This document shows positions 4,829 through 50,589 of a stretch of 64,000 nucleotides of DNA, piece by piece. Source of the DNA: Candidatus Poribacteria bacterium (GTDB lineage: Bacteria; Poribacteria; WGA-4E; WGA-3G); contig OY764073.1 of NCBI GenBank assembly GCA_963668035.1, positions 3,138,930-3,202,929 of the forward strand. Direction: 5' to 3'. Below the pieces are notes generated by a model. It was not told the DNA's origin and made no database searches. It was given only the letters and a program-made list of their open reading frames with translations. The stretch's first letter is position 1. The number at the start of each line of letters is the position of its first letter. The position numbers were made by a program, and so were the translations under genes.

Positions 4829-6439
4829 CTACCGATCAGAGGTCCGAACATTTAGGGTAATATAGTCCCCGCCGCGTCCATCTGGCAATCTGACATAAAG
4901 GAGTATACGGCTTTTGTTTTCCGCTTTCAGTTGCTCGGCGACGCGGGCATAAGCCTTAGCGTCGTCAATCGGCATCCATTCCATTTCTTGGATGAGGTAT
5001 CCGGGTTTGATACCTTCTTTCTCTGCGTTACTGCCGCGTTCAACCTCGGTGACGACAACGCCTTTCTCTTCAGGAGAATGACCGTAACGTTCAGCAAGTT
5101 CAGGAGTCAAGTTTTGGACGTGGATCCCTGCCAACGCTCCTTGGTGTTCCTCTTGGCGTTCGCCTTCAAGTGCCGCGAGGGTTTCCGCTGTGCGTCTCCC
5201 CAATTTAACAGTCAACCGTTTTTCATCGTCTCCCTTTCGGAGAACTGTCACCTCAACAGATGTGCCGACGACTGTCGCGCCGACAATATGCCGTAGGTGA
5301 TTCAAGTCTCGGACTTGCTGCCCATCAAAGGTGAGGATGACATCGCCGCGTTGGATGCCTGCTTTTTCGGCAGGACTTTTCATACCGACGACTTTAACGA
5401 GGACTCCCCGGGGCTGGTCAAGGTTCAGTTTCTCCGCCAACTCAGTACTAACTTCACCCATACTAATGCCGAGCCAACCGCGTTCCACCTTACCGTTTTC
5501 TATCAGTTGTGGCAAAATCTGCTTTGCCATGTTACTCGGAATAGCAAAACTGATTCCGATATTCCCCATCGTAGCGCCGCTGGTAGCAATAAAAGTATTA
5601 ATGCCGACTAATTCGCCCCGAATGTTAATCAGCGCACCGCCGCTATTGCCTCGGTTAATCGGTGCGTCGGTTTGTATGAACTGGCCATAAGCCGTAAATC
5701 CGATTCTGTCCTTCGCGCTCACAATGCCGCGCGTCACAGTTTGTGAGTAATTCAGTGGCGTGCCGATAGCGATAACCCACTCGCCAACTTCAAGCACATC
5801 GGAATCGCCGAACCGCAGGGTTGGAAGATTATCGGCATCAATTTTAATAACTGCCAAATCGCTGCCCCCGACATCACTGCCTGCATCATCACGTCCGATT
5901 AACTCGGCTGTATACTCTTCACCGTCCGCTAAAGTGACCTTAATCTCGTCAGCACGCTCGATAACATGATTATTCGTAAGAATATAACCATCTTCACTGA
6001 TAATTACTCCAGACCCGATACCTGTGGTGGGCTCTGGATTCGGATTGCGCTCGCGCGGGAGAGATTCCCAAAAGCGTCTAAACAATTCTTCTTCCTCAGG
6101 TGTGAGCTGATCTCTACGGAAAAAAGGGGCAAAAGGATTGTCTCCCTCGGGTATCGGCAGCACTCTTCGTGTTGTTACAGTTCTTCTCGGTTTTGCTTCT
6201 GTCGTAATTTGCACGACAGCGGGACGCGTACGCGCGACCAAATCGATAAACGCTCGATTGGCACGTGCCAAGTGCTGAAAATCTTCCGAGTTTTCAAGTG
6301 TTTCGTCCGTTTGCCCGATTGCTGTCTGTACCCTGAACTCATCAGTATCCCAACTGATGACGATCCCTGCTACGACGACAAATGCTGCTAAGATTAATAG
6401 GAGCCTTATCGGGTGGCGAAGTGTGTTTCTGAATTTCAT
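4829..6439 (-). CDS. htrA: Periplasmic serine endoprotease HtrA/DegP (trypsin-like domain plus two PDZ domains).
   Basis: Motifs TNNHVI and GNSGGAL(I/V)N mark a catalytic triad context, with PDZ-like C-terminal repeats. The start was set at ATG 6439 (MKFRNTLRHPIRLLLILAAF signal/TM), preceded by GGAGG. Confidence 0.9.
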   Translation of the reverse strand: MKFRNTLRHPIRLLLILAAFVVVAGIVISWDTDEFRVQTAIGQTDETLENSEDFQHLARANRAFIDLVARTRPAVVQITTEAKPRRTVTTRRVLPIPEGDNPFAPFFRRDQLTPEEEELFRRFWESLPRERNPNPEPTTGIGSGVIISEDGYILTNNHVIERADEIKVTLADGEEYTAELIGRDDAGSDVGGSDLAVIKIDADNLPTLRFGDSDVLEVGEWVIAIGTPLNYSQTVTRGIVSAKDRIGFTAYGQFIQTDAPINRGNSGGALINIRGELVGINTFIATSGATMGNIGISFAIPSNMAKQILPQLIENGKVERGWLGISMGEVSTELAEKLNLDQPRGVLVKVVGMKSPAEKAGIQRGDVILTFDGQQVRDLNHLRHIVGATVVGTSVEVTVLRKGDDEKRLTVKLGRRTAETLAALEGERQEEHQGALAGIHVQNLTPELAERYGHSPEEKGVVVTEVERGSNAEKEGIKPGYLIQEMEWMPIDDAKAYARVAEQLKAENKSRILLYVRLPDGRGGDYITLNVRTSDR

Positions 6440-7296: not shown

Positions 7297-7333
7297 ATCC
7301 GAAAATAGCATGAGCCAATAATAAGGAGTCATT

Positions 7334-8119
7334 ATGGCAACACAAAACGCGCGCTCTGCGAAACAGATCGCAGCACAACTTTATACTGTTAGAGAATTTA
7401 CCAAAACTGAGGCGGATATTGCCGAAACAATGAAAAAGGTTCGGCAACTCGGTTACGAAGCGGTGCAATGCTCCGCACTCGGTCCGATTGAACCCGCAGC
7501 CCTGAAAAATATCGTCGACGGTGAGGGTATCAGTATCATCGCAACGCATACCAGCTACCAACGGATGCGCGATGAACCGCAATCTGTCATTGATGAACAT
7601 CAATTATGGGGCTGTAAACATGCCGCAATCGGTGGATTGCCCGGTGAATACCGGTCTGCTGAGGGATACGCCACATTTGCGAAAGAGGCATCCGAAGTCG
7701 CAGCACGGCTCGCCGAAGGCGGTTTGACCTTTTCTTATCATAACCATAGCTTCGAGCTGGAACGCTATAACGGACGGACGGGCTTAGAGATTTTGTACGC
7801 CGAAAGCGATCCGAACTATTTTAAAAGCGAACTGGATACCTATTGGATTCAGCACGGTGGTGGCGACCCTGCGGAATGGGTACGTCAGTTGAAAGGACGT
7901 GCCGACATCATTCATCTCAAGGACATGGCGATGCAAGGCTCTACACAACGCTTTGCGGAAATCGGTGAAGGCAATCTTAATTGGGCTGCCATTTTAAATG
8001 CGTGTCTTTATGCAGGCGTTGAATGGTATATTATCGAGCAGGATAGCTGTTACGAACGCGATCCGTTTGAAAGTTTAGGCATCAGCTTGAATAACCTGAA
8101 AGAGATGGGTTTCGCGTAG
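7334..8119 (+). CDS. Sugar phosphate isomerase/epimerase (xylose-isomerase-like TIM barrel).
   Basis: AP-endonuclease-2/xylose-isomerase-like TIM-barrel signature (AAQLYTVREF..., conserved His/Glu/Asp spacing) and a ~260 aa length. Confidence 0.75.
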   Translation: MATQNARSAKQIAAQLYTVREFTKTEADIAETMKKVRQLGYEAVQCSALGPIEPAALKNIVDGEGISIIATHTSYQRMRDEPQSVIDEHQLWGCKHAAIGGLPGEYRSAEGYATFAKEASEVAARLAEGGLTFSYHNHSFELERYNGRTGLEILYAESDPNYFKSELDTYWIQHGGGDPAEWVRQLKGRADIIHLKDMAMQGSTQRFAEIGEGNLNWAAILNACLYAGVEWYIIEQDSCYERDPFESLGISLNNLKEMGFA

Positions 8120-8170
8120 CGGCGTAGATGGGATGCTGCATTGAGATGGGGGCGGGGGACCCGATTAAGA

Positions 8171-8297
8171 TTGGAGCGGGAAACCCGCCCCTTACGCAAG
8201 AAAACATAAACCCACAATGTGATAGTCAATGAAATCGGAGCGGGAAACCCGCCCCCTACGCAAGAAAACATAAGCACACAATGTGATAGTCAATTTT
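8171..8297 (+). repeat. Two tandem ~63-bp direct repeats, each with a GAGCGGG-AAA-CCCGCCC hairpin, immediately upstream of the tRNA-Pro promoter.
   Basis: Units 8171-8233 and 8234-8297 differ at only a few positions. A partial copy (ggggcgggggacccg) sits at 8147-8165. Confidence 0.8.
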
Positions 8298-8299
8298 TA

Positions 8300-8328
8300 T
8301 TTGACTTTGCGATAACTTAATGATACAA
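8300..8328 (+). promoter_or_regulatory. Putative sigma70 promoter TTGACT-17-TACAAT for tRNA-Pro.
   Basis: ttgact 8300-8305, a 17-nt spacer, then tacaat 8323-8328. This is about 22 nt upstream of the tRNA 5' end. Confidence 0.45.
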
Positions 8329-8349: not shown

Positions 8350-8423
8350 AACGGGGCGTGGCGCAGCCCGGAAGCGCGCTTGAATGGGGTTCAAGAGGTC
8401 GCTGGTTCGAATCCAGTCGCCCC
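8350..8423 (+). tRNA. tRNA-Pro (anticodon GGG).
   Basis: Hand-folded cloverleaf. Acceptor stem cggggcg/cgccccg, D stem gcgc/gcgc, anticodon stem cttga/tcaag, loop aTGGGGt with U33. T arm gctgg-ttcgaat-ccagt, discriminator A. The CCA is not encoded. Confidence 0.85.
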
Positions 8424-8488
8424 GATCTCTGATATGCAATTCGGTTTGTCAGCACGGCAAACGACAAGGAAAGGAGGGAGCTGTAATA

Positions 8489-36636: not shown

Positions 36637-37795
36637 ATGCGAGAACATCTTATCAGATCAGCGAAGTTTTTTCAATCTGTTTTGTATGCGAACTTTCGGG
36701 ACATGACACCCGAACTTTCTGAAACCTTGCTTGGACTTTCAACGGGACATCTCTTTGGACTGGACAATCCGAATCAAGTCGCAGATGCTTTAGAGGTTTC
36801 GAAGAATAAACTCTATAGAGACCTCAAAGCGATGAGTCTTTATCAGTGGAAGTCTCTGTTAGTGGGTATCGTCTCTATGATCGCTATTGAAGCGATCCGT
36901 GAGACGGAAGCGAAGTCGGCCGCGACACAATCTCGGCGTTGTATCACGCTAAGTGTTGATGACACCAATGATCCTCGGTAGGTCCAAGACGCTCTCTTAT
37001 CGCTATAACTGGTGGTCAACACAGCAGAAGAACGCTATCAAAGGTCGAAACATATTAGCCATCACCATCAAGATCGGCGATGTCATTCTCCCGCTGAACA
37101 TCCGTATCGTCTCTAAACAAGGCAGAGGCAACACGGATAAACCATCGTGCTTTCGGACGATGCTCCAAGAAGTGCTTGATGTCTTTGATGCCGAAGGGAT
37201 TGATCTGAGAAAGTATCCGATCACTTTTGATTCTTGGTATGGCAGCAAAGCACTTGTTGAGGCGTTAGATGAGTTCGGATTTGCCTGCGTCCTTGTCCAC
37301 GGTAAAAGCAACTCTGTCATGGAGATTGAGGGTCAGAGCAGCAAACTTTCAGAACACAAGAAAACCGTCAAGTTGCTGACGGATCAATGGGGATGTGATA
37401 AACCCGTGCGGCGACTGCCCGCGAAGAGCCCGACTTTCGGCGAACTGGTGCTGCTCTTTTTTTCAGCAGAGAGCAAAACGCAAACGATGATGGTCTTTGG
37501 CAGACCTGGACGCTCGGCGGAAATCCTGCATATCTGGTCGCAACACCATGGCATAGAACAGTTTTGGCGACATCTGAAAACCGATCTCCGACTTTCAGCT
37601 ATGAGTTTGCATCACCGAAACGGTGCTTATGGGTCCTTAGGGATAAAGGTTCTCAGTTATCTCATGATCCAGCAGGTGATTCGCTCAGCACGCCTCACTT
37701 TTCATCAGATAAAACTTCAACTTTCGGGCGATAGACAGATGCTGTCTATCATCAAGACGCATTTTCATCAACGAAGCACACAAGAACACCTATAA
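36637..37795 (+). pseudogene. IS4-superfamily DDE transposase (DDE_Tnp_1-like), split by a frameshift near 36960-36980; an IS remnant or inactive IS copy.
   Basis: Two overlapping ORFs in adjacent frames (36637..36981 and 36953..37795). A VDDT motif at the end of ORF1 continues as ...GKTLSYRYNWW in ORF2. There is no slippery heptamer, and the terminal inverted repeats are not clearly definable. Confidence 0.65.
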
Positions 37796-38094: not shown

Positions 38095-38405
38095 AAGGGT
38101 GTGTAAAGTTTTTGGCAGCGCTCCGTCGTCCAATTTATTAGAAAACCTGGTTTCCCTCTTTAGTCCTGTAAGGTTTATTTGCTTGGGTATTTCTTCGAGT
38201 ATGTTTATAGAAACACGTGGCAACAACCCGCATTAGCCCTGTAAGGGCGATATGTTTATTACATTAGTCAGACACATATCGCCCTTACAGGGCTAAGTTT
38301 TTTTGGGCAACGCATCTCTATAAACATACCGTCCCTACGGGACTAAAGAGAGGACGCTGCCAAAGAAAATTGACTTTGGACACTTCCGCGCCAAAATACT
38401 TACAC
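38095..38405 (+). repeat. ~310-bp imperfect palindromic (MITE-like) element whose arms carry the GTCC(C/T)GTAGGGAC / GCCCTGTAAGGGC hairpin repeats.
   Basis: Left arm gggtgtgtaaagtttttggcagcg...ttagccctgtaagggcgatatgtttat. The right arm is its reverse complement, ending ...cgctgccaaagaaaattgactttggac...cacaccc. Confidence 0.7.
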
Positions 38406-38426: not shown

Positions 38427-38455
38427 TTGCAAAAAATGTCGCAATGTGATATAAT
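38427..38455 (+). promoter_or_regulatory. Sigma70 promoter TTGCAA-17-(TGa)TATAAT, extended -10, driving the riboswitch operon.
   Basis: ttgcaa 38427-38432, a 17-nt spacer, TG at 38447-38448, tataat 38450-38455. Confidence 0.55.
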
Positions 38456-38469
38456 ATAGACATTACAAT

Positions 38470-38648
38470 TGAATAAATTAACGGTTCAGGTGCCGGAGAG
38501 AGCCGGAGAATAGGGAAGCGCGGTGAGAATCCGCCACGGCCCCGCCACTGTGAACGATTGCAAATACCCACTGAAAAAACCACTGTCAATTAATTGATGG
38601 GAAGGTTCAGCGGACGCAAGATCGGAAGTCAGGAGACCTGCCTGGATC
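38470..38648 (+). ncRNA. Cobalamin (AdoCbl/B12) riboswitch aptamer.
   Basis: It matches the conserved core recalled from memory: ...AATAGGGAAGCGCGGTGAGAATCCGCCACGGCCCCGCCACTGTGAACG... the B12-box GCCACTG ...GGGAAGG... GAAGTCAGGAGACCTGCC. Confidence 0.8.
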
Positions 38649-38786
38649 GTGTTTCACACTTATGCTTTCGCGGGAAAGCAGCGGAACAGCGCACAGCAGT
38701 ATCCTGTTAGAAGCCGTAGGGGCGGGGTTTCCCCGCCTGATAAATCACGCAATTGCAGGATTAACATTATACAAATGTCGCCTTGT

Positions 38787-38824
38787 CCCCTGCCTTTTCT
38801 ATGAAAGCAGGGGTTTCTTGTTTC
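38787..38824 (+). terminator. Intrinsic terminator (riboswitch expression platform): stem CCCCTGC/GCAGGGG followed by TTTCTTGTTT.
   Basis: Hairpin cccctgc-c-ttttctatgaaa-gcagggg, then a U-rich tract. RBS GGAGG and ATG 38840 lie downstream. A second GC-rich hairpin (aggggcggggtttccccgcct, 38718-38739) could be an alternative structure. Confidence 0.6.
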
Positions 38825-38839
38825 ATTACGGAGGTTTTA

Positions 38840-40123
38840 ATGAACAATACTTTTTTTTCTCGGCGGCATTCCTCAGGCACGCTTCTGCTTTCGCTGGTAA
38901 GTGCGCTCATCTTCACGTTCCTCGTCAGTCCTACTTTTGGACAAACAGATGTCCAAAATCTCGCCGTTATTATCAATGCTTTGGATAAAGACGACTTGAA
39001 CATCACCTCAACACTCTCGCTTATAGATCTCGATGAACCAAATGCGAAACGCGCTGTCGACCATGAAATACTGACAATCGGTGATGTCCCGAATGGGCTG
39101 CTGATTCACGGACACCTCGCTTACATCTGCCGTTTCGATTGGATTTCCGGGGATCTCAGCGACAGCGTTTTAATCGTTAATCTGGAACAGCGGACAATTA
39201 TTGGTCATATCCCGATTGCCCCCGGTGCGTATCCGCAAAGTCTCGCGCTGGTTAGTCCAAACAAAATGTACGTTACGTGCGATAACGTTCATGAGGTACA
39301 CGTCATTGACATCCCGAGCCGCAGTGTAACGAAAATCATCACGGATTCGTCCTTCAACAAAACGACCGGTATTACGCTGCTTAACGGCAAGGCGTACGTG
39401 ACGAATCCTGCTTGGGAGTGGGATGCAGCAACGGGCAAATCTGTCTATCACGATAGCAGCGTCACGGTGATTGATACCGAGACAGATACCGTTCTAAAAT
39501 CCATCCGGATGCCTATAAATGCAGGTGGGATCCTCAACGATGGCGAATCTACTGTGATTGTCCGGACGACAGGCGATTACAATCTGGTTTCCGGGAACAT
39601 TGTCCTCATTGATGCGACTACCGATGAAATTATCAAAACGGTTGATCTCAAGACGACACCCGGCGCGTTTGCAATCAATTCACAGAAACAGCTCTTTATT
39701 CAGAGTGGCTGGCAGAATCCGGGTTTGCTGATCTACGATGTGCCGACCCAAAAGTGGATTCGAGATAAGAAGAGTGCGCTCGCCGAATTCGCCGGAGGTG
39801 CCGGGATGACTTTCGGACCAGACGGGAATCTCTACATCACCAAACCCGACTGGACCGGTGGTGGACTCTCTACTGTTCTTGTCATGGCACCAGATGAAAC
39901 CCTGATCAAGACCTACCAAGCCGGACACGGGACCGACAACATCGGTATTGTCCAAATTGTGCCGCGCCGCGAGGATGTCAATGATGATGGATTTGTCAAT
40001 TTCGAAGACCTAACCATCGCGAGCCGATTCCTCGGAAGTTACGGACCCGGCATAATCGCCGATGTCAATAGCGACGAAGTCGTTAATGTGCTTGACCTCG
40101 TGCTGATCGCACAGGAATTTTAG
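38840..40123 (+). CDS. Secreted YVTN/YncE-type beta-propeller protein with a C-terminal type-I dockerin repeat pair.
   Basis: Signal peptide MNNTFFSRRHSSGTLLLSLVSALIFTFLVSPTFGQ and repeated blade motifs (YVT, D..T.(K/T).I). Dockerin DVNDDGFVNFEDLTIASRFLG...DVNSDEVVNVLDLVLIAQ. It is the first gene after the riboswitch. Confidence 0.7.
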   Translation: MNNTFFSRRHSSGTLLLSLVSALIFTFLVSPTFGQTDVQNLAVIINALDKDDLNITSTLSLIDLDEPNAKRAVDHEILTIGDVPNGLLIHGHLAYICRFDWISGDLSDSVLIVNLEQRTIIGHIPIAPGAYPQSLALVSPNKMYVTCDNVHEVHVIDIPSRSVTKIITDSSFNKTTGITLLNGKAYVTNPAWEWDAATGKSVYHDSSVTVIDTETDTVLKSIRMPINAGGILNDGESTVIVRTTGDYNLVSGNIVLIDATTDEIIKTVDLKTTPGAFAINSQKQLFIQSGWQNPGLLIYDVPTQKWIRDKKSALAEFAGGAGMTFGPDGNLYITKPDWTGGGLSTVLVMAPDETLIKTYQAGHGTDNIGIVQIVPRREDVNDDGFVNFEDLTIASRFLGSYGPGIIADVNSDEVVNVLDLVLIAQEF

Positions 40124-40153
40124 GCGCGGCTTAGAACTGTCAAAGGATGTGGC

Positions 40154-42058
40154 ATGAATCGAACGACAGCGATAGAGAGGGCGGTCTGGTGCATGCCACT
40201 GCTCGTTTTTCTCATCAGTTGCGCCTCAACTTCCGAAGAGGAAGCGTTTTCATGGCAGGTGACTTTCTTTGCGTTGGGCGCAAAGGTGCAATTCAGTGCA
40301 GAAGCACCCGTCCAGCGTCTCAGTGCCTTTAATATGGATGGCGTGAGGGTTGCGCAACTCAACTTTCCCGTACCACCTCGGCAGACAGAGCCACTCTATT
40401 TTGAATGGCATGCGGGGGAGACCTATAGGTTTGAGGCGACCTTGTCAACTGGGAATACCAAGGTTCAAAAGGTAACCGCACCACGCGTGACCACACACGG
40501 AAATTTAGACATTGCCATCCCTTATGGTGCTGCGTCGGAAAACGTTCAGAAGGCACTCATGCTGTACGGCAGCGAAATGACTGCTACAATCCTCGTTACA
40601 AACGGGAATGTGCCAACGACCTTTGACCTCAAACTCTGGCTGCCTTCAACGTTAACCGTCGTTCGCCTGCCGACAGATTGGAAAAGCGAGGTTATCAATC
40701 AGAAAACGTGTCTCTTTACCACGGGTAGACTTCGCATTGCCTCGGAAGTCTGGTATCGCGAGTTAGTCCTGAAAACAGCCGAGGTGAACGCAACAGGCGG
40801 TCAAGAAATTTCAGGTGCTGTCCGCTTCACAACGGACACTGGACAGACATGGAAACAGCAGGCGAAGGTACAACTCCAGCTGGCGACTGTGCCAGAGATT
40901 GCCGAACGTCTCTCTATAGAATCAATTGAGATGCCTACAGATGCAACGGGGACGGCGGACCCCACACAGCGAGAAAATACCATCTCCTACGCACGTCCAC
41001 TATTCAGGTGGTTCGGAACGCCGCAGACCGATCCATATCAACCGATAACTTATCAGACAGTCCGGCTCCGCAACGCCGGTAAGGAGACGATCCATGTTGT
41101 TGTATCCTCGACCAACATAGATATGAAAAGTGGTGAAATTATTCCGTTTCTCGCGCCACCGGAGACAACAGACGGCGGGTCACATCGGAGTGTGGCGTTC
41201 GCGAGTTTACCCGGAGGCGTAATCACAGATATCCCGCTACCTATCTATTTTCATCCGGTGTATATAAAACAGGAAAACCGACCAGAACAGGCGACTCCTG
41301 GCGAGTACGCGCGGGACATTAACGTGAAGGTTTGGGGAAGCGATGCGACTATTCTTCGCGAAAAACGCCCGTTACACCTGATCGTTCCAAACCGACAAGC
41401 ACTCTTTATCAGTCTATTGGCAATTATCGGCAGTAGCATCGGGTTCGCCCTTGTTTTACGGTTTCATAAGCGAATTTTTGCGGGGTTCACAACGAAACAG
41501 GTCATCGTCATCGCGCTATTCGGCACAACAGTTTTTGTGACGGTGATAGTGCCATCAACACTATTTCTCAATTTAATCCATGCTATCCTCGGTCCCTTTT
41601 CTGTACTGCTGACGGGTTTGATAAATGAGACGCTCTATTATGCTTTGCTCACTGCACTGTTAATTTATATCCATGGGGATCCAGAGGGATCAACACGGGA
41701 CAATAAAGGCAGCGGCGTAATCTTGCTTGTCTCAGCGGTGCGTCTACTGCTCAGCGGTGTCACGTTCGGACTTTTCACACCCGTTGCAATTATCTACACC
41801 GGCACGAGTGTGCTTCTACTGGAAACTGGATTTCTATTGGTGCGAAGACGAAATATAGTGGCGTGGGCAGTCGTGCTTGGACTCTGCGATGCGATTGCCG
41901 TTTATGTCGATTTCCAACTCTCTATACTGTTTTACCGGCTTTTCTACGCCGATTGGTATATTGTGTTACGAGTCCTGATAGAAGGGTTCGCCTATACCTT
42001 TATCGGCGTGCTGCTCGGCGCGAGATTAGGACGCGGGCTCTGGCGTGTAGCAGATTAA
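40154..42058 (+). CDS. Membrane protein with an N-terminal lipoprotein-type signal (LLVFLISC), a ~400 aa extracytoplasmic domain and a C-terminal 6-7 TM domain.
   Basis: Hydrophobic helices start at ALFISLLAIIGSSIGFALVL. The 6-7 TM organisation is compatible with an ECF-type S-component-like fold (BtuM/CbrT-like); this is inference only. Confidence 0.6.
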   Translation: MNRTTAIERAVWCMPLLVFLISCASTSEEEAFSWQVTFFALGAKVQFSAEAPVQRLSAFNMDGVRVAQLNFPVPPRQTEPLYFEWHAGETYRFEATLSTGNTKVQKVTAPRVTTHGNLDIAIPYGAASENVQKALMLYGSEMTATILVTNGNVPTTFDLKLWLPSTLTVVRLPTDWKSEVINQKTCLFTTGRLRIASEVWYRELVLKTAEVNATGGQEISGAVRFTTDTGQTWKQQAKVQLQLATVPEIAERLSIESIEMPTDATGTADPTQRENTISYARPLFRWFGTPQTDPYQPITYQTVRLRNAGKETIHVVVSSTNIDMKSGEIIPFLAPPETTDGGSHRSVAFASLPGGVITDIPLPIYFHPVYIKQENRPEQATPGEYARDINVKVWGSDATILREKRPLHLIVPNRQALFISLLAIIGSSIGFALVLRFHKRIFAGFTTKQVIVIALFGTTVFVTVIVPSTLFLNLIHAILGPFSVLLTGLINETLYYALLTALLIYIHGDPEGSTRDNKGSGVILLVSAVRLLLSGVTFGLFTPVAIIYTGTSVLLLETGFLLVRRRNIVAWAVVLGLCDAIAVYVDFQLSILFYRLFYADWYIVLRVLIEGFAYTFIGVLLGARLGRGLWRVAD

Positions 42059-42073
42059 ATCAGGAGGACAACA

Positions 42074-43792
42074 ATGCAGCGAATTCCGTTTTTGAGTCTA
42101 CTTTGCTTGTTTTTTATTTTACCTATTAGCATTGCGACAGCCGAGATGCGTGTCAACTGGATACGGACAGGTGTAATGCTTGAATTTTCGCTCGACGACG
42201 ATTTTGAAGGCAGTATCAGCGTCTCAACCGTGTCTAACGGCATAGCACATAAATTAGCTGAAACCCCGACAGTTACAGAATTCAATACACAGCCCAATGC
42301 CAAGCGCATACTGCTCCAATTTCCGTGGCACCCTAACGAAGCGTATCAATTTCATTTTCGCTTAAGTGATACCAAAATAACAGCGACTGCCCCGCTTAAG
42401 CCGACACCCTACGTTATCAGTACGGTTGAATTGGATGGTCTTTTATCTCTGATGGAGAACTTGCGTCAACCTGCGAAACCGACCGCGATTGCCTTGGGAC
42501 ATGGAAATGCCCCTTATGCACATAGATTAGCGGTTGCGACTGATAGGGGGCACCTTGCGGTTCTCCAAACGCTCTCAGGCAAATCACTCTGGGAGACCCG
42601 AATTTCGGAAGGTTATGTGAAAAGAATGGCGTTCAGTCCAGACAATAAGTTGCTCTATATCGGTGAGCAGGCAGCAGATGGCTATATCTACTGCTACGAC
42701 TTCGCAGCTACTGAGTCAACACTTCGCTGGAAATACCGCACCGCTGACGACATCGAGACCTCCGTGCCGAGCAACCCGGACAGCGTCTACGCTTGGGTCA
42801 ACTATCCTGGTCCAGTCTGCATGCGTACACTCGCTAACGGCGACCTTTTGGTCGCAAGTGTGCATGCGTGGACAGAGAACGAGGTCCCCTTAAAAAAATC
42901 GCAGCTGTACCGGTTTGATAATGGAACGGGAGATGTCATCTGGAAGTGGCCCCGCGATGGCGCGATGCAAAAGATAATTCGCTGGTTTGACGTAGATGCC
43001 GATGGGGAAACCCTCGCGCTCCTAACGGATGCAGGATACAATTTACAAGGAAGCACCCCTGATGAAGAGGGTGCGGTCAACGGAAGACTCTCTGTGTTGA
43101 ACGCGAAAGACGGAACAGAGAAGTGGCACGCCGATATTGAACCTTTAGGCAAGTATTTTTCGCAGGTCACATTTTGGCGAGGTGTTAGCATATCCCCCGA
43201 CGGTAGATTTATCAATGTAACAACAGACGACGGCCGCGCCTTTATCTTTGATGTCAATACCCGCAAACCGATATGGCAGGAAGACTTGACAACGCCATTG
43301 GAGATAAGCGGGATCCCGATTGTCGCGACTTCCGGCACGATCGGGGCGACGGATACGGCAGCACTTTTTGTCACTGGGGATACGTATGTTCCGTATCATC
43401 TCCAAAAAGGCGCGCAACGCCCTTCAGCAGCACACCCAAATGGGATGACGTTGTTTGCTTATGCGTGGTCTGGTGAAAAAATCTGGCAGTGGCAACTTGA
43501 GAATATGCCACAAGGCTTAAGCATTGATGCGAAAGACCGCTACGCGGCACTCTCTGTTTCTAAGCGTACGCGGGATCCGAATGAGAGTCTTCACGGTGTA
43601 TCGGTATTTGATTTGACAACAGCAGGCAGCGGCTTATCAAAATACCTGTACACCTATCGCACAGAGGGGCAGCTCCCTTATGATACACTTGCGATCAGTG
43701 CAGATGGTGCGTTCATCGTTGCCGTTGAAGTGCCGATAGCAATGCCAGATGAGACAGTGCGCGGAAAAAATCGGGTGCATGTGCTGTATTGA
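42074..43792 (+). CDS. Secreted PQQ-like/BamB-like beta-propeller repeat protein.
   Basis: Signal peptide MQRIPFLSLLCLFFILPISIATA and repeated W-containing beta-propeller blades (LWETR, IWKW, KWHADI, IWQEDL, IWQWQL). Confidence 0.7.
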   Translation: MQRIPFLSLLCLFFILPISIATAEMRVNWIRTGVMLEFSLDDDFEGSISVSTVSNGIAHKLAETPTVTEFNTQPNAKRILLQFPWHPNEAYQFHFRLSDTKITATAPLKPTPYVISTVELDGLLSLMENLRQPAKPTAIALGHGNAPYAHRLAVATDRGHLAVLQTLSGKSLWETRISEGYVKRMAFSPDNKLLYIGEQAADGYIYCYDFAATESTLRWKYRTADDIETSVPSNPDSVYAWVNYPGPVCMRTLANGDLLVASVHAWTENEVPLKKSQLYRFDNGTGDVIWKWPRDGAMQKIIRWFDVDADGETLALLTDAGYNLQGSTPDEEGAVNGRLSVLNAKDGTEKWHADIEPLGKYFSQVTFWRGVSISPDGRFINVTTDDGRAFIFDVNTRKPIWQEDLTTPLEISGIPIVATSGTIGATDTAALFVTGDTYVPYHLQKGAQRPSAAHPNGMTLFAYAWSGEKIWQWQLENMPQGLSIDAKDRYAALSVSKRTRDPNESLHGVSVFDLTTAGSGLSKYLYTYRTEGQLPYDTLAISADGAFIVAVEVPIAMPDETVRGKNRVHVLY

Positions 43793-43820
43793 TTTTTGGT
43801 TGCCTGACAGAGACATTCAA

Positions 43821-43851
43821 GGGAACAACAAATCTGTTGTTCCCTCTATTG
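43821..43851 (+). terminator. Intrinsic terminator-like hairpin GGGAACAACA-AATC-TGTTGTTCCC after the three-gene operon.
   Basis: Perfect 10-bp stem followed by tctatt. Confidence 0.5.
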
Positions 43852-43880
43852 CAACTTGATAGCAGACACAAAAAGAGAAT

Positions 43881-46604: not shown

Positions 46605-47642
46605 ATGCGAAATTTTAGCACATTGCACAAATATCTTTTTTTAGGTTTAGCACTAATTTTAATCTCTGGTTGCGACAGGATTTCGGACGTAACCCTTACT
46701 GAGCCCCCCGCTGCACCGCTTCGCGTAACCATGATATATCCAACCGATTGCGTCGGGAGTGCAGCTTACTGTGACGCTTTCAATATTGGTGTCCAAACTG
46801 CAGCAGCTGAGCTCGAAATTAGTCTTAAAGAGGTTAGTGGAAATGAAAACGATCCGGTAGCGTCAGAGATGGCGGTCAGAGATGCCGCACAGACTTCGGA
46901 CCTCGTTTTGGCAGCGGGTTACCAACTCGGAGAACCGCTCGCTCGCGTTGCCGCTGAATTTCCGGATGTCAAGTTCGCCATTTTTGATGTTGTGCTTGAT
47001 ATTCCGAATGTGGCATCTGTCAACTACAAGTCAAACGAAGGTTCATTTTTAGTCGGCGCGATTGCGGCACTCAAAACAGAGAGCGGTAAAATCGGTTATA
47101 TCGGCGGCGCGGATGTCCTCTTACTACACGAATTTGAAGCTGGTTACGTTGCCGGGATTCAGGCGATCCATCCAGAAGCGGAAATTTCTATTGATTACAT
47201 CAGTCTGGATGCAACCGGGTTCGGTCAGCCGGATAAGGCAAACGAGCTCGCGTTAGCACAATATGAGAGCGGCGTTGATGTGATTTACACCGCAGCCGGC
47301 GGCGCGGGTCAAGGCGTGCTTGAAGCCGCGCAAGCACAACAGAAATATATCATTTGGGTCGATTCTAACGGTAATCATCTTGCCCCCGGTATCGTTCTAA
47401 CGAGCATGGTTAAAGAGATCCCTATCGTTGTGCAAACAATCATCCGTGAAACCGTTGCAGATAAATTTATGCCCGGTATTCGATACTTTGGGCTCGAAGA
47501 TGGCGGTGTGAGTTATGCCGTTGATGAACACAATCAGTCTCTGCTTTCAGATGACATGGTGGCAACCGTTGAGTCGCTGAAAGCAAAAATTATTGCTGGC
47601 GAGATTGTTGTTCCCGACACAGTTTCGCTGCCGAGAGAATAA
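46605..47642 (+). CDS. BMP-family (basic membrane protein/PnrA/Med-like) ABC transporter substrate-binding lipoprotein.
   Basis: Lipobox LISGC and the motifs FAIFDVVLDIPNVASVNYKSNEGSFLVGAIAA and GKIGYIGG. Confidence 0.85.
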   Translation: MRNFSTLHKYLFLGLALILISGCDRISDVTLTEPPAAPLRVTMIYPTDCVGSAAYCDAFNIGVQTAAAELEISLKEVSGNENDPVASEMAVRDAAQTSDLVLAAGYQLGEPLARVAAEFPDVKFAIFDVVLDIPNVASVNYKSNEGSFLVGAIAALKTESGKIGYIGGADVLLLHEFEAGYVAGIQAIHPEAEISIDYISLDATGFGQPDKANELALAQYESGVDVIYTAAGGAGQGVLEAAQAQQKYIIWVDSNGNHLAPGIVLTSMVKEIPIVVQTIIRETVADKFMPGIRYFGLEDGGVSYAVDEHNQSLLSDDMVATVESLKAKIIAGEIVVPDTVSLPRE

Positions 47643-47643
47643 T

Positions 47644-49608
47644 ATGAAGTGGATATATCTCTTAGCTGCTATTTGCCTGTTTGCGGCTTTAAATGGGTGT
47701 ACGCAAGAGAAAGATGATACGCGCTGGGGCTTGCCTAAAGGTGCGAAATTGCGTATCGGTAGAGGGCGGGTGGAGGATGTAAAATTCTCGCCGGATGGGA
47801 AGCTGCTGGCAGTAGCAAGTTCAGTCGGCATTTGGCTTTACGATACAGAAACTTATACGCCACGCACCCTAATTACAGCGGATAAGGGCGCGGTCACTGC
47901 TATCGCTTTCTCCGCAGACTCGCGGCACCTTGCCGGGGGCAGTGGGCACTATACGCTCTCTGTGTGGGACGTACGTTCCGGGCGGCTCCTACGAACGTTC
48001 GGTTTGGAGAAAGGGCTTCCGCCGGGGATCGGCGACATTGTAGGGGGCCTGGAGGAGGTCGTTTTCTTAGCATTTTCTCCGGATGGACGCAGCCTCGCGA
48101 GTTTCGCGCGGTTTGAAGGAACGCTCCGCTTGTGGAATGCACACACCGGCGATTTGTTGAAGACCTTCTTCAAGGACTATCCTTCAGAACTTACCAAGGC
48201 CGCAGCGTTTTCTCAGGACGGACAGACGCTTGCCATTGCGGATGGGGATGGGGGTCACGGCAGAATTAGTTTGTGGGACGCTGAAACACATAGATACCGA
48301 AATACCATCTTAACGAAAGCTGTTATCTCTATGGCGTTTTCTCCGGATGGACGCACGCTCGCCGCTGTTGTAGGAAGATATGATGATGACAAGGCACTCC
48401 TTGTATGGAATATGCACACCAGAAAATGGCTCCGGACGCTCACAGGACACACAGGTTCAATCGATACCTTAGCCTTTTCTCTAAATAACCGAATTGTGGC
48501 AGGTGGGGACGACGGTGACCGGGTGTTACGGATGTGGGATGCGCGCACAGGGGATTTGCTGAGAACGTTCAAGGGACATACGGATTTCGTTCGCGTGCTC
48601 GCCTTCTCTCCAAGCGGTGAGACGCTTGTGAGTGCCAGTTTCGATAATACATTGCGGGTGTGGGATACTGAAACCGGGCAGCAAAAGAGAGTCCTCATGG
48701 AGCACATAGGTTGGGGTAAGGGTGTAGTGTTCTCTCCAGATGGACGGTGGCTTGCAAGTATAAGCTACGATGATAAAATCCGCTTGTGGGATAGACACAC
48801 GGGACACCTGTTGCGAGTGCTCAGCGGGCACACGGGTCCAGTTACTGCTGTAGCCGTTTCGTCGGATGGGAGAACCCTTGCAAGTATTGGACGTTTTCCT
48901 GACAGGACGCTCCGGTTATGGAATCCTGAAACCGGTGAGCTGTTGAAAACGGTTTCGGAATATGTCGGAAAGCGGACATGTGTATTTTCTCCCGATAGTC
49001 AAACACTTGCTACCGGCGGCGGTAGAGAGGGGACAGTTCGCTTATTTGATGTCGCAACCGGTAGACTGTTGAAAACTTTGGTAGACTCTAAAAACATAGT
49101 TAAGACGGTGGCGTTTTCTCCGGATGGGAAACTTCTTGCTGGTGGCGGTTGGTCAACAGGGTTTTGTATCTGGGATGTTCAGACGGGTGATCTGCTGAAA
49201 ACTTTTTCAGAGGCGTATGGTGTCGAAATTCTGGCGTTTTCTCCGAATGGCAAAACGCTTGCCAGCGGCGGTGGGTTTAAAGATGCGACAATCCGTTTGT
49301 GGGATATCCGCACGGGTGAAAAACGGTTTACCCTAAAAGGACATGAGAAAAACCCAACGACCGCACATGTCAGCGATGTCTATGCTATTGCATTCTCGCC
49401 GGATGGGATGTTACTTGCCAGTGGTGGCATAGACGGTACGGTCCGTTTGTGGGATCCGACCACAGGCTCGGCGTTATCTACTTTCGTAGGAAATCAGAGC
49501 TCTGTTTCGGCAGTTGCGTTTTCTCCGGATGGTAAAACGCTTGCCAGTGGTGAATCCGCGATCTTTCTGTGGGATGTTGACGCAGTTTTGCGAAGGATAG
49601 TGGACTAA
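47644..49608 (+). CDS. WD40-repeat lipoprotein (~14 repeats).
   Basis: Lipoprotein signal MKWIYLLAAICLFAALNGC. Repeated FSPDG..LA.G....RLWD units resemble those in the ECF fusions. Confidence 0.8.
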   Translation: MKWIYLLAAICLFAALNGCTQEKDDTRWGLPKGAKLRIGRGRVEDVKFSPDGKLLAVASSVGIWLYDTETYTPRTLITADKGAVTAIAFSADSRHLAGGSGHYTLSVWDVRSGRLLRTFGLEKGLPPGIGDIVGGLEEVVFLAFSPDGRSLASFARFEGTLRLWNAHTGDLLKTFFKDYPSELTKAAAFSQDGQTLAIADGDGGHGRISLWDAETHRYRNTILTKAVISMAFSPDGRTLAAVVGRYDDDKALLVWNMHTRKWLRTLTGHTGSIDTLAFSLNNRIVAGGDDGDRVLRMWDARTGDLLRTFKGHTDFVRVLAFSPSGETLVSASFDNTLRVWDTETGQQKRVLMEHIGWGKGVVFSPDGRWLASISYDDKIRLWDRHTGHLLRVLSGHTGPVTAVAVSSDGRTLASIGRFPDRTLRLWNPETGELLKTVSEYVGKRTCVFSPDSQTLATGGGREGTVRLFDVATGRLLKTLVDSKNIVKTVAFSPDGKLLAGGGWSTGFCIWDVQTGDLLKTFSEAYGVEILAFSPNGKTLASGGGFKDATIRLWDIRTGEKRFTLKGHEKNPTTAHVSDVYAIAFSPDGMLLASGGIDGTVRLWDPTTGSALSTFVGNQSSVSAVAFSPDGKTLASGESAIFLWDVDAVLRRIVD

Positions 49609-49647: not shown

Positions 49648-50589
49648 CTAATAACTTCGCAGGATAGTACCTTTCGCGCCGACAATCCAGCCTGCATTTT
49701 TTTGGAGGTGAATGTCCTGCAAATTATATTTTGCAGGGGTCGGATACCGACTCCACATTTTACCACCATCAGTTGTATGGAGGATTAAACCTTTTTCACC
49801 GACTGCCCATCCGCGCTTCTCGTCGCGGAATGCCACGTCTCGTAAGCTCTGATTCACAGGAGTCTTTTGGCGAACCCATGTCTGGCCGCCATCAGTCGTC
49901 CCAAGGATCAGCCCGTTTGTGCCGACGATCCACCCATCCTTTACATTCGCGAAGTGGACAGCAAAGAGGTGTTGCTCGGCGTTGCTTCTCTGATGCACCC
50001 AGCGTTGACCACCGTCTTTGGTATGGAGCACCTCACCTTCTTCGCCAACGATCCAACCGTGTTCTGTGTCAACGAAATGGACTCCCCATAAATGTTTATC
50101 AGAAAGGTTTCTGTGGTTTTCCCAACGACTCCCGCCATCTGTTGTGTGAAGAATAGTGCCCGATCCGCCGACTGCCCAACCTTCGGTCGTACTCACAAAA
50201 TACAGATCTAAGATACCGGGGGGTCTTTTCCCTTCGCCACGAACTTGATGTTGCAGGCTCCAAGAAGCACCGCCACTGCCTGTGTAATGCACCTTCCCGA
50301 TACTCACAAGCCAACCATTATTCGGTGTCGTAAAACTAACTTCTGTCAATGTCCCTTTCGACACAGCTGCTTTAGTCCAAGTCAGCCCACTATTGCTGGT
50401 AGATAGTATTGTGCCAGCAGTGCCGACTGCCCATCCACGTTCTGCACCCACAAAATGGACACCGTAGAGATGTTCACCGGTACCGCTTTCAAGCTGTCGC
50501 CACTCAAATTGCACTGAATCTCTGGAACAACCGAGGTAGACGAGGCTTCCAAGTATGATAATAAGCGCGAGCGCGTTTTTTTTCTGCAT
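49648..50589 (-). CDS. Ycf48/BNR-like beta-propeller lipoprotein.
   Basis: Lipobox YLGC and repeated GW(A/I)VG..G.IL.T.DGG..W motifs. Confidence 0.7.
   Translation of the reverse strand: MQKKNALALIIILGSLVYLGCSRDSVQFEWRQLESGTGEHLYGVHFVGAERGWAVGTAGTILSTSNSGLTWTKAAVSKGTLTEVSFTTPNNGWLVSIGKVHYTGSGGASWSLQHQVRGEGKRPPGILDLYFVSTTEGWAVGGSGTILHTTDGGSRWENHRNLSDKHLWGVHFVDTEHGWIVGEEGEVLHTKDGGQRWVHQRSNAEQHLFAVHFANVKDGWIVGTNGLILGTTDGGQTWVRQKTPVNQSLRDVAFRDEKRGWAVGEKGLILHTTDGGKMWSRYPTPAKYNLQDIHLQKNAGWIVGAKGTILRSY

Follow-up and report, generated by a model that had tools for sequence, protein, structure and literature searches.

We analyzed a 64,000-nucleotide (nt) stretch of a Candidatus Poribacteria genome (contig OY764073.1), hereafter the window, in which a cobalamin riboswitch precedes an operon of three genes. 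The three open reading frames (ORFs) are all on the + strand. Gene 1 (38840–40123) encodes a beta-propeller of the YVTN/DUF5074 type with a signal peptide and a length of 427 amino acids (aa), apparently related to BtuG. Gene 2 (40154–42058) encodes a lipoprotein of 634 aa in which an ectodomain is joined to a membrane core, and gene 3 (42074–43792) encodes a PQQ_2/WD40-like propeller of 572 aa. The ATG at 38840, which lies behind a GGAGG sequence, is most likely the true start of gene 1; the mechanical TTG start at 38783 falls within a terminator. We consider it rather probable that the locus is a vitamin B12-repressed operon for scavenging corrinoids (cobalamin, its analogues or its precursors), built on an atypical S-component of the energy-coupling factor (ECF) type. 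Genes for BtuB, BtuF, BtuC, and BtuD were not found in the operon, and no TonB-dependent receptor was found in the operon or in the adjacent genes scanned.

The leader RNA was examined for the elements that a sequence-only reading of this DNA had proposed, namely a B12 riboswitch with its own promoter and an attenuator terminator ahead of three co-directional genes; all were found at the positions given. The Rfam covariance-model search of the window identified the cobalamin riboswitch aptamer (RF00174) at 38471–38659 on the + strand, with a score of 112.8 bits against a gathering score of 31.5 (E = 1.8e-27) and coverage of the full model (positions 1–189). The B12-box and core motifs, GCCACUG and AGUCAGGAGACCUGCC, fit the consensus and were invariant over 12 related aptamers. 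The proposed sigma-70-like promoter, TTGCAA-17-TATAAT with an extended -10 TG, is present at 38427–38455 (+ strand) and matches at 10 of 12 positions. The promoter scan returned 10 sites compared to 7.7 in shuffles, which is chance level when taken alone; the call is plausible because the site lies approximately 15 nt ahead of the aptamer start.

The expression platform extends from 38660 to 38839 on the + strand and consists of a terminator hairpin, a U-run, and a Shine-Dalgarno sequence. The arms of the hairpin, CCCCUGC (38787–38793) and GCAGGGG (38807–38813), are followed by UUUCUUGUUU, approximately 130 nt 3' of the aptamer, and the U-run of this intrinsic terminator occupies 38814–38823. 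Its folding energy was -14.4 kcal/mol (z = -3.25), and none of 200 shuffled sequences was equally stable. The Shine-Dalgarno sequence GGAGG (38830–38834) is located between the terminator and the ATG at 38840. A self-complementary segment, GCUUUCGCGGGAAAGC, lies at about 38664–38679 within the platform. When the whole leader is folded to minimum free energy, the segment 38661–38684 pairs with the terminator region, and it is a possible antiterminator in this predicted fold. We infer that the aptamer is coupled to the terminator, which would give the leader its switching logic. A hairpin with a T-run and ACGGAGG was observed at the equivalent position in 12 of the 16 Poribacteria loci inspected, with loops that vary. 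In the other four, the T-run and ACGGAGG lie further from the annotated start, and the upstream arm is beyond the 70-nt window extracted.

Close homologs of genes 1 and 2 that carry a source name all come from Candidatus Poribacteria, either sponge symbionts or free-living marine bacteria. Across 41 loci of Poribacteria genomes, the order gene 1–gene 2–gene 3 was kept wherever the contig was complete. Rfam placed the riboswitch upstream in all 12 loci searched, and the aptamers were used to build a covariance model, which detected it in all 38 Poribacteria loci that have upstream sequence; the three others end at a contig edge. It was also kept in divergent loci, in which gene 2 is 55% (L032), 44% (L036), or 42% (L046, a Tara Oceans mesopelagic contig) identical. 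In L036, a homocysteine S-methyltransferase gene (7324–8325; PF02574, E = 8e-54) occupies the gene 3 position behind the equivalent riboswitch, which may link this locus to methionine synthesis.

Gene 2 carries a lipobox (LISC) with Cys23, a cysteine that is invariant across the family. Its structure was predicted with AlphaFold. A model made with 49 close Poribacteria homologs reached a predicted local distance difference test (pLDDT) value of 45.6 and was discarded, whereas a diverse alignment of 105 sequences, including representatives of 21–45% identity, gave a pLDDT of 91.7 and a predicted template modeling score of 0.82. In this model, a signal helix is followed by all-beta domains over residues 34–410, which form three beta-sandwiches (residues about 34–110, 116–245, and 253–410). 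A linker membrane helix (residues 414–443) then leads to a six-helix core resembling an ECF S-component (residues 447–633, nt 41492–42052, + strand). The membrane helices were placed at residues 414–443, 447–507, 522–538, 543–563, 568–594, and 600–633. The helix count is seven, one linker plus the six-helix core, with approximately 390 extracytoplasmic residues, which corrects the six to seven transmembrane helices first read from the letters. In the predicted structure, the core has the ECF S-component fold, and its best fold match was YkoE (5EDL). The one extra helix fits this assignment because an N-terminal domain on the outside must be joined to an S-component core that has both termini in the cytoplasm.

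Searches by sequence gave no usable match of gene 2 in Pfam, NCBIfam, or PDB with the single sequence, the 105-sequence profile, or the membrane-domain profile, and the last of these reached no PDB chain at E values up to 10. CbrT and BtuM were not matched by the whole-protein or membrane-domain profiles among PDB sequences, a set that presumably includes the ECF-CbrT and BtuM structures. The earlier claim that the locus does not resemble ECF systems did not hold for the predicted fold or for the EcfAA'/EcfT context described below.

Conservation in gene 2 is highest in the membrane domain. Nearly all residues from 440 to 632 are invariant within Poribacteria, and the membrane motifs include GPF..L.TG, PRPG, and YRLFYADWYI. 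Poribacteria gene 2 retains residues that are invariant in the ECF-linked homologs of other lineages, including E557, R595, W601, and Y602. Two segments are near-invariant across phyla, namely M/L-P-T-D-x-x-G-x-x-D at the start of the third ectodomain (residues 260–269, 40931–40960) and the above YRLFYADWYI in the last membrane helix (residues 594–603, 41933–41962). Both are candidate ligand or interface sites.

An exhaustive HMMER search over 1.84 billion cluster representatives (50% identity) returned at least 360 relatives of gene 2, of which 276 had E values up to 1e-10, and many were full length at 27–35% identity. Named carriers are Planctomycetota, Tectomicrobia, Candidatus Oleimmundimicrobium, Desulfatibacillum aliphaticivorans (Dalk_4067), and Dethiosulfatarculus sandiegensis, together with Phascolarctobacterium and other Acidaminococcaceae from the human gut. 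Relatives from named sources are annotated throughout as "hypothetical protein", and no description of the family was found in Pfam, NCBIfam, the source annotations, or the searchable literature. The idea of a module particular to this locus was abandoned, as gene 2 belongs to a widespread family.

The gene context of this family was examined in loci outside Poribacteria. A metagenome scan with the family alignment gave 301 relatives, of which 80 loci were kept and mapped by tblastn. The counts for other lineages refer to 79 loci without gene 1, 72 of which have sequence after gene 2. In 55 of these 72, the gene immediately downstream of the gene 2 homolog encodes a fused EcfAA' double ATPase, and a T gene or double ATPase was found anywhere in the locus in 61 of the 79. 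A gene-3-like propeller was present in 51 loci, CobN in 18, and matches to the Tectomicrobia receptor in 11 of the same 79. In a Planctomycetota locus (L042), a gene-3-like propeller and the gene 2 homolog are followed by a fused two-domain ATP-binding cassette (ABC) ATPase, which overlaps the stop codon of the gene 2 homolog, and by CbiQ/EcfT. The fused ATPase and CbiQ/EcfT were also observed behind gene 2 homologs of Tectomicrobia, Candidatus Oleimmundimicrobium, Desulfatibacillum, and metagenomes. The Tectomicrobia locus (L045) has a TonB-dependent receptor and a BtuF-family Peripla_BP_2 protein ahead of the ECF arrangement, and the Candidatus Oleimmundimicrobium locus (L044) has two CobN genes in addition to it. 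In L049, the arrangement lies between exbB-exbD-tonB and a CobN gene with a TonB-dependent receptor. The Desulfatibacillum locus (L051) contains a TonB-dependent receptor, CobN, and, nearby downstream, CbiK/CbiX.

B12 riboswitches were also detected at these loci. With the custom model, 12 of the 79 loci had one upstream in the same orientation; among the 40 loci with an upstream flank of 3 kb or more, the number was 11. Eleven of the 12 were confirmed at the Rfam gathering score (ten at 43–110 bits and that of L050, which precedes an ECF arrangement, at 105.5 bits); the remaining one is that of L126. In L086, the riboswitch lies 256 nt ahead of the gene 2 homolog itself. In two low-GC loci (L120 and L123), a riboswitch and a TonB-dependent receptor come first, and the gene 2 homolog lies further along, followed by EcfAA', EcfT, and a PQQ_2 propeller; L123 has an additional riboswitch, receptor, and ATPase in between. 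Proteins related to that of L120 are from Phascolarctobacterium succinatutens and Acidaminococcaceae. Phascolarctobacterium-type gut bacteria ferment succinate via a B12-dependent mutase. Neither of the outcomes named at the outset as refuting occurred: the covariance model gave a strong match, and the placement of homologs behind B12 riboswitches was observed in the 38 Poribacteria loci and in 12 loci of other lineages.

Several further features of these loci were recorded. Two or three RF00174 riboswitches occur within 17 kb in the low-GC loci L123 (2028–2204, 4612–4788, and 16914–17084), L129, L131, and L086, and the GC content of L123 and L131 is about 0.38–0.43. Riboswitches 1 and 2 of L123 each precede a TonB-dependent receptor leading to the ECF genes, and loci of this type are a dense B12 regulon. 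Genes of the CobN/Mg-chelatase family (up to 1286 aa) recur beside the ECF module in L044, L049, L051, and 15 metagenome loci, often with a TonB-dependent receptor. The gene 2 homologs of L059–L062 and L047 are 30–36% identical and have no gene 1, gene 3, or adjacent ECF module; the neighbors in L047 are a small cytochrome c3-like ORF and VWA/BatA genes.

Gene 3 encodes a signal peptide, a small N-terminal beta domain, and then the propeller. It scored 44 bits on PQQ_2 against a cut-off of 27.6 (Pfam), whereas its score on the BamB equivalog TIGR03300 was 27.6 against a cut-off of 285. Of the PQQ/BamB-like propeller that had been suggested, the PQQ part was retained and the BamB part was not, and the product appears to be a PQQ/WD40-like propeller. 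The N-terminal ~100 residues of gene 3 are homologous to ectodomain 1 of gene 2 (hhalign probability 92.5%, E = 4.7e-7). Full-length homologs of gene 3 adjoin gene 2 homologs in Planctomycetota, Tectomicrobia, and an actinobacterial metagenome-assembled genome (28–33% identity, blastp E = 4e-106 to 2e-63). These results suggest that gene 3 is an obligate extracytoplasmic partner of the S-component; at a guess, it might take part in substrate binding or hand-over. Gene 3 was also considered as a second BtuG-like binder and rejected, since its profile matched WD40, PQQ, and BamB-type propellers only and no YVTN/BtuG propeller. The sequence-only reading had described two propeller binders plus a fused binder/transporter. 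The reading as a module and the BtuG-likeness of gene 1 were supported by the computational tests that were run, but for gene 3 as a B12 binder the conserved pairing with gene 2 is the sole support.

Beyond Poribacteria, gene 3 homologs with a lipobox were observed in L044 (5216–6916, LLSGC) and L045 (7168–8817, LLAGC); in Poribacteria, the signal peptide of gene 3 is plain. In L046, the gene 3 homolog is without the N-terminal domain.

The N-terminus of gene 1 (MNNTFFSRRHSSGTLLLSLVSALIFTFLVSPTFG/QTD) is a signal of the signal-peptidase-I type, with no cysteine and without a lipobox. A profile of the gene 1 family (34 members) returned chains of BtuG1 (8PTD, 8PTF, and 8BLW_B) as the top PDB matches, at E = 1.5e-11 over approximately 255 positions. 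8PTD and 8PTF are Bacteroides thetaiotaomicron BtuG1 bound to cyanocobalamin and cobinamide, and 8BLW_B comes from a study of BtuB-BtuG (PMC10404256). The best solved-structure match of the single sequence was also BtuG1 (E = 1e-5), and BtuG2/BtuG3 matched the family profile at about 1e-4. On Pfam DUF5074, a BtuG1 fragment scored 28.7 bits, all 34 gene 1 homologs matched at E < 0.01, and the homolog of L032 scored 29.5 bits, over the cut-off of 27.2. What had been offered as an analogy with BtuG is a detectable homology, through the profile match and, at the level of the gene 1 family, the matches to DUF5074. NCBIfam gave weak YncE and PQQ-ABC-repeat propeller matches.

A type I dockerin forms the C-terminus of gene 1 (residues 378–425, 39971–40114, + strand). 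It scored 25.3 bits on Dockerin_1 against a cut-off of 22.9 (Pfam), with two calcium-binding repeats, DVNDDGFVNFEDL and DVNSDEVVNVLDL, read from the sequence, so that the YVTN/YncE-type propeller with a dockerin was recovered as described earlier. The dockerin is carried by 33 of the 34 gene 1 homologs and is absent in the divergent homologs of L036 and L046. Homologs of gene 1 were confined to Poribacteria-type loci. Gene 1 appears to be a distant relative of the BtuG family, an atypical member and a candidate corrinoid binder. No cohesin sequence signature was found for a dockerin partner, and the gene 2 ectodomain also occurs in lineages that have neither gene 1 nor a dockerin. An insertion in domain 2 of gene 2 was tried as a feature that might go with the dockerin; L046, which has no dockerin, is without approximately 30 residues there, yet L036, which also has no dockerin, keeps the segment, and there was no correlation. 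The docking of gene 1 onto the gene 2 ectodomain is an attractive hypothesis.

From these observations, we propose the following scheme. When B12 is plentiful, coenzyme B12 would bind the leader, the terminator hairpin would form before the ribosome-binding site, and the three genes would be off; when B12 is scarce, the leader would be read through and the three genes transcribed. Gene 2 would be the membrane core, acting as an atypical S-component of an ECF-type ABC importer, with the extra helix placing a lipid-anchored stack of three beta-sandwiches outside the cytoplasmic membrane. Gene 3 would be its extracytoplasmic partner, with a probable role in substrate reception or transfer. As a Poribacteria-specific addition, gene 1 would be an exported, high-affinity, corrinoid-binding propeller tethered by its dockerin, perhaps through a cohesin-like domain that might lie in the gene 2 ectodomain. 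The substrate would then be passed to the S-component core and imported with power from an EcfAA'/EcfT encoded elsewhere in the genome; alternatively, gene 2 might act alone in a BtuM-like manner. Four parts of this scheme are our inference: what is transported, whether genes 1 and 3 bind it, what the dockerin pairs with, and how the Poribacteria system is energized. The Poribacteria operon is an unusual version of a widespread family, with no adjacent ATPase/T genes and with a BtuG-like protein added. A further-reaching version, in which this is the first ECF importer with extracytoplasmic capture proteins, the ectodomain-bearing S-component recruiting gene 3 via the shared domain and gene 1 via dockerin–cohesin contact, is tentative, and we judge it doubtful.

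Several observations weigh against corrinoid scavenging. The S-component fold comes from a predicted, not a solved, structure, and sequence comparison showed no resemblance of any part of genes 2 and 3 to a known B12-binding protein. In the gene 1 family search, a generic YVTN S-layer propeller (1L0Q) was matched at E = 1.6e-10, and BtuG1 was only marginally better. On DUF5074, the gene 1 of the window scored 21.7 bits, which is under the cut-off, and the gene has neither the lipobox nor the neighboring BtuB by which Bacteroides BtuG is defined. The published contact residues of BtuG1/BtuG2 could not be placed on gene 1, the identity being too low and the chain numbering irreconcilable. In other lineages, most loci have no riboswitch in the available flank, and the CobN genes and the one CbiK/CbiX fit cobalt uptake at least equally well. 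In L048, genes for a glycoside hydrolase and a sulfatase (5–1462 and 5117–6421) are interspersed among the gene 2 homolog and its ECF genes, and no riboswitch was found; the substrate may vary within the family. By tblastn, EcfA, EcfT, and BtuF-like genes were absent from the 64-kb window and from within 5 kb of the operon in the 41 loci.

The CobN and CbiK/CbiX neighbors bear on the explanation that survives best among the rivals, in which the module imports cobalt ion or a small cobalt/metal chelate for B12 synthesis. Gene 2 would then be a metal-specific S-component like CbiM, and the ectodomain and propellers would handle the metal or a metallophore. Cobalt importers are regularly under the control of B12 riboswitches; CbtJKL was initially regarded as a B12 transporter and proved to be a Co(II) carrier, and CbiMNQO, a riboswitch-controlled cobalt importer, is itself an ECF system (PMC7689651). 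The cobaltochelatase CbiK/CbiX just downstream in Desulfatibacillum and the CobN-type chelatases are consistent with this explanation, as is a weak match to Pfam ABC_cobalt (PF09819, E = 0.002) in one of 25 family membrane domains. However, the first gene of the operon in Poribacteria is most similar to the corrinoid binder BtuG1, and the TonB-dependent receptors of the family, often with their own B12 riboswitch, together with the one BtuF-type protein are the usual signature of large-ligand uptake. The best fold match, YkoE, is a carrier for an organic vitamin precursor. In metal S-components of the CbiM type, an N-terminal Met-His motif is required at a cytoplasm-processed end; the N-terminus of gene 2 is fused to the ectodomain, unlike this free end. 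We regard cobalt import as unlikely, and as the rival to be taken most seriously.

The missing ECF genes bear on another explanation, which we consider improbable. Here the Poribacteria module would serve corrinoid sequestration or display, with gene 2 anchoring propellers that hoard B12 or hand it to another transporter, e.g., BtuB/BtuCDF. Besides the absence of EcfA/EcfT near the operon in the window and the 41 genome loci, none of 10 Poribacteria-type (gene 1-bearing) metagenome loci had an ATPase or T gene beside gene 2, and the dockerin of gene 1 implies assembly on a scaffold. Bacteroides is reported to use multiprotein extracellular relays and B12 reservoirs (BtuG, BtuH, and BtuJ). A passive anchor is difficult to reconcile with the conservation of the membrane domain, the most conserved part of gene 2; the ECF-linked invariant residues are kept in gene 2, and therefore a retained transport function is favored. 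In group II ECF systems, moreover, S-components are commonly encoded apart from the shared ECF module, so the separation itself is normal.

The least probable explanation, another tetrapyrrole or an unrelated nutrient with the B12 riboswitch reflecting an indirect B12-dependent need, could draw on the CobN-like proteins also found in haem-uptake loci (HmuS of Bacteroidota is one), on the lack of a riboswitch in the available flank of most loci outside Poribacteria, and on the L048 neighbors, but it has against it the riboswitch in 38 of 38 Poribacteria loci and its recurrence in several other lineages, the BtuG-like gene 1, and the general rule of B12 regulons that riboswitch-controlled transporters nearly always carry the ligand, its metal, or a precursor.

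Corrinoid scavenging by an atypical S-component is the reading that we prefer, and its component kinds are known: the cobalamin riboswitch, the BtuG/DUF5074 propeller, the dockerin, the ECF S-component fold, and the PQQ-like propeller. No description was found, in the databases, annotations, and literature searched, of four further features. These are an S-component whose lipid-anchored ectodomain of three beta-sandwiches is joined to it by an additional helix; its obligatory, domain-sharing propeller partner; the recurrent placement of such a module behind B12 riboswitches with TonB-dependent receptors and CobN; and an apparently BtuG-like, dockerin-bearing protein outside Bacteroidetes. The unannotated gene 2 family holds the ECF S-component position in at least five lineages, yet neither Pfam nor NCBIfam has a model for it. 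In dense communities such as those of sponge tissue, gut, and sediments, B12 and its analogues are shared nutrients of keystone importance, and the ability to take them up shapes these communities. If the substrate is confirmed, the family would represent a third cobalamin-import architecture beside BtuCDF and the small S-components CbrT and BtuM. If the scheme is true, ECF transporters would gain an extracytoplasmic capture apparatus, overturning the textbook rule that they have no substrate-binding protein, and BtuG-type B12 piracy would extend past Bacteroidetes to sponge symbionts and human-gut Negativicutes. Models of B12/cobalt acquisition for Poribacteria, Phascolarctobacterium, and Desulfatibacillum would need revision. 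Direct testing is feasible, as there are cultured carriers among gut and sulfate-reducing bacteria.

The surroundings of the operon were also surveyed. A 10-bp hairpin 3' of gene 3, read from the sequence (AGGGAACAAC-AAATCT-GTTGTTCCCT, 43820–43845, + strand), possibly marks the operon end; it has a weak T-run and was not called by the terminator scan. The flanking genes have no B12 link. Upstream is a DDE-family transposase ORF (36953–37795), and beside it, just 5' of the riboswitch promoter, three short GC-rich palindromes occur at 38236–38343, namely GCCCTGTAAGGGC, GCCCTTACAGGGC, and GTCCCGTAGGGAC (minus strand). The operon may border a mobile or repetitive extragenic palindromic (REP)-like element. 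Downstream are genes for a glutaredoxin-like protein, gamma-glutamyltranspeptidase, a Bmp-family binding protein, and a WD40 protein. A 671-aa WD40-repeat protein (47593–49608) and a Ycf48-like BNR propeller (49648–50589) lie a few kb downstream with no evident operon link, and they agree with the reported abundance of repeat proteins in Poribacteria. A tRNA gene (8352–8425, 58.8 bits) was the sole other Rfam match in the window.

The system closest to gene 1 is BtuG (3DSM, 8PTD, 8PTF, 8PUJ, and 8BLW), with which it shares the YVTN-type propeller, the profile homology, and a B12-riboswitch-controlled locus, together with DUF5074 matches at the level of the gene 1 family. Picomolar binding of cobalamin and cobinamide has been described for BtuG proteins (bioRxiv 10.1101/2024.02.16.580637), and a survey of gut genomes by BlastP reported BtuG from Bacteroidetes only (PMC6143338). 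In contrast, gene 1 has a plain signal peptide, a C-terminal dockerin, no lipoprotein export signal, and no BtuB to cap; its host is a member of Poribacteria, and it is a putative B12 binder. The dockerin recalls the cohesin–dockerin pairs of cellulosomes, from which this locus differs by its context of vitamin uptake instead of polysaccharide degradation and by having no cohesin signature.

Compared to the BtuB-BtuF-BtuCD system, the operon is likewise a riboswitch-controlled candidate for B12 import in a diderm cell, and family loci elsewhere include TonB-dependent receptors and, in one case, a BtuF-family protein. The inner-membrane step, however, would be of the ECF type with an ectodomain and a propeller, and not a type II ABC importer, BtuCD, with BtuF. 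Among ECF-type systems, CbiMNQO/NikMNQO differ in that gene 2 has no CbiM signature, its N-terminus being fused to an ectodomain and not free and metal-ligating, and BtuG-like and PQQ-like propellers are absent from Cbi/Nik systems. CbrT and BtuM are S-component-fold membrane proteins for cobalamin uptake and provide functional precedents for the role proposed here for gene 2; CbrT is predicted to be riboswitch-controlled, and BtuM functions without an ECF module. Unlike gene 2, both are of approximately 20 kDa, with no extracytoplasmic domain or partners, and no sequence relationship to gene 2 was detectable.

The nearest match in fold belongs to the YkoEDC-type group I ECF transporters, which have a fused double ATPase and the S-component YkoE (5EDL). 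Gene 2 has no sequence similarity to any S-component family, and its core is preceded by the lipid-anchored beta-sandwich ectodomain of ~400 residues and the extra helix. A conserved periplasmic propeller accompanies the family, and A and T genes are missing from the Poribacteria operon. The main departure concerns the S-component itself: the known kind is a protein of approximately 20 kDa that binds the substrate by itself, without an extracytoplasmic binding domain, whereas gene 2 encodes 634 aa.

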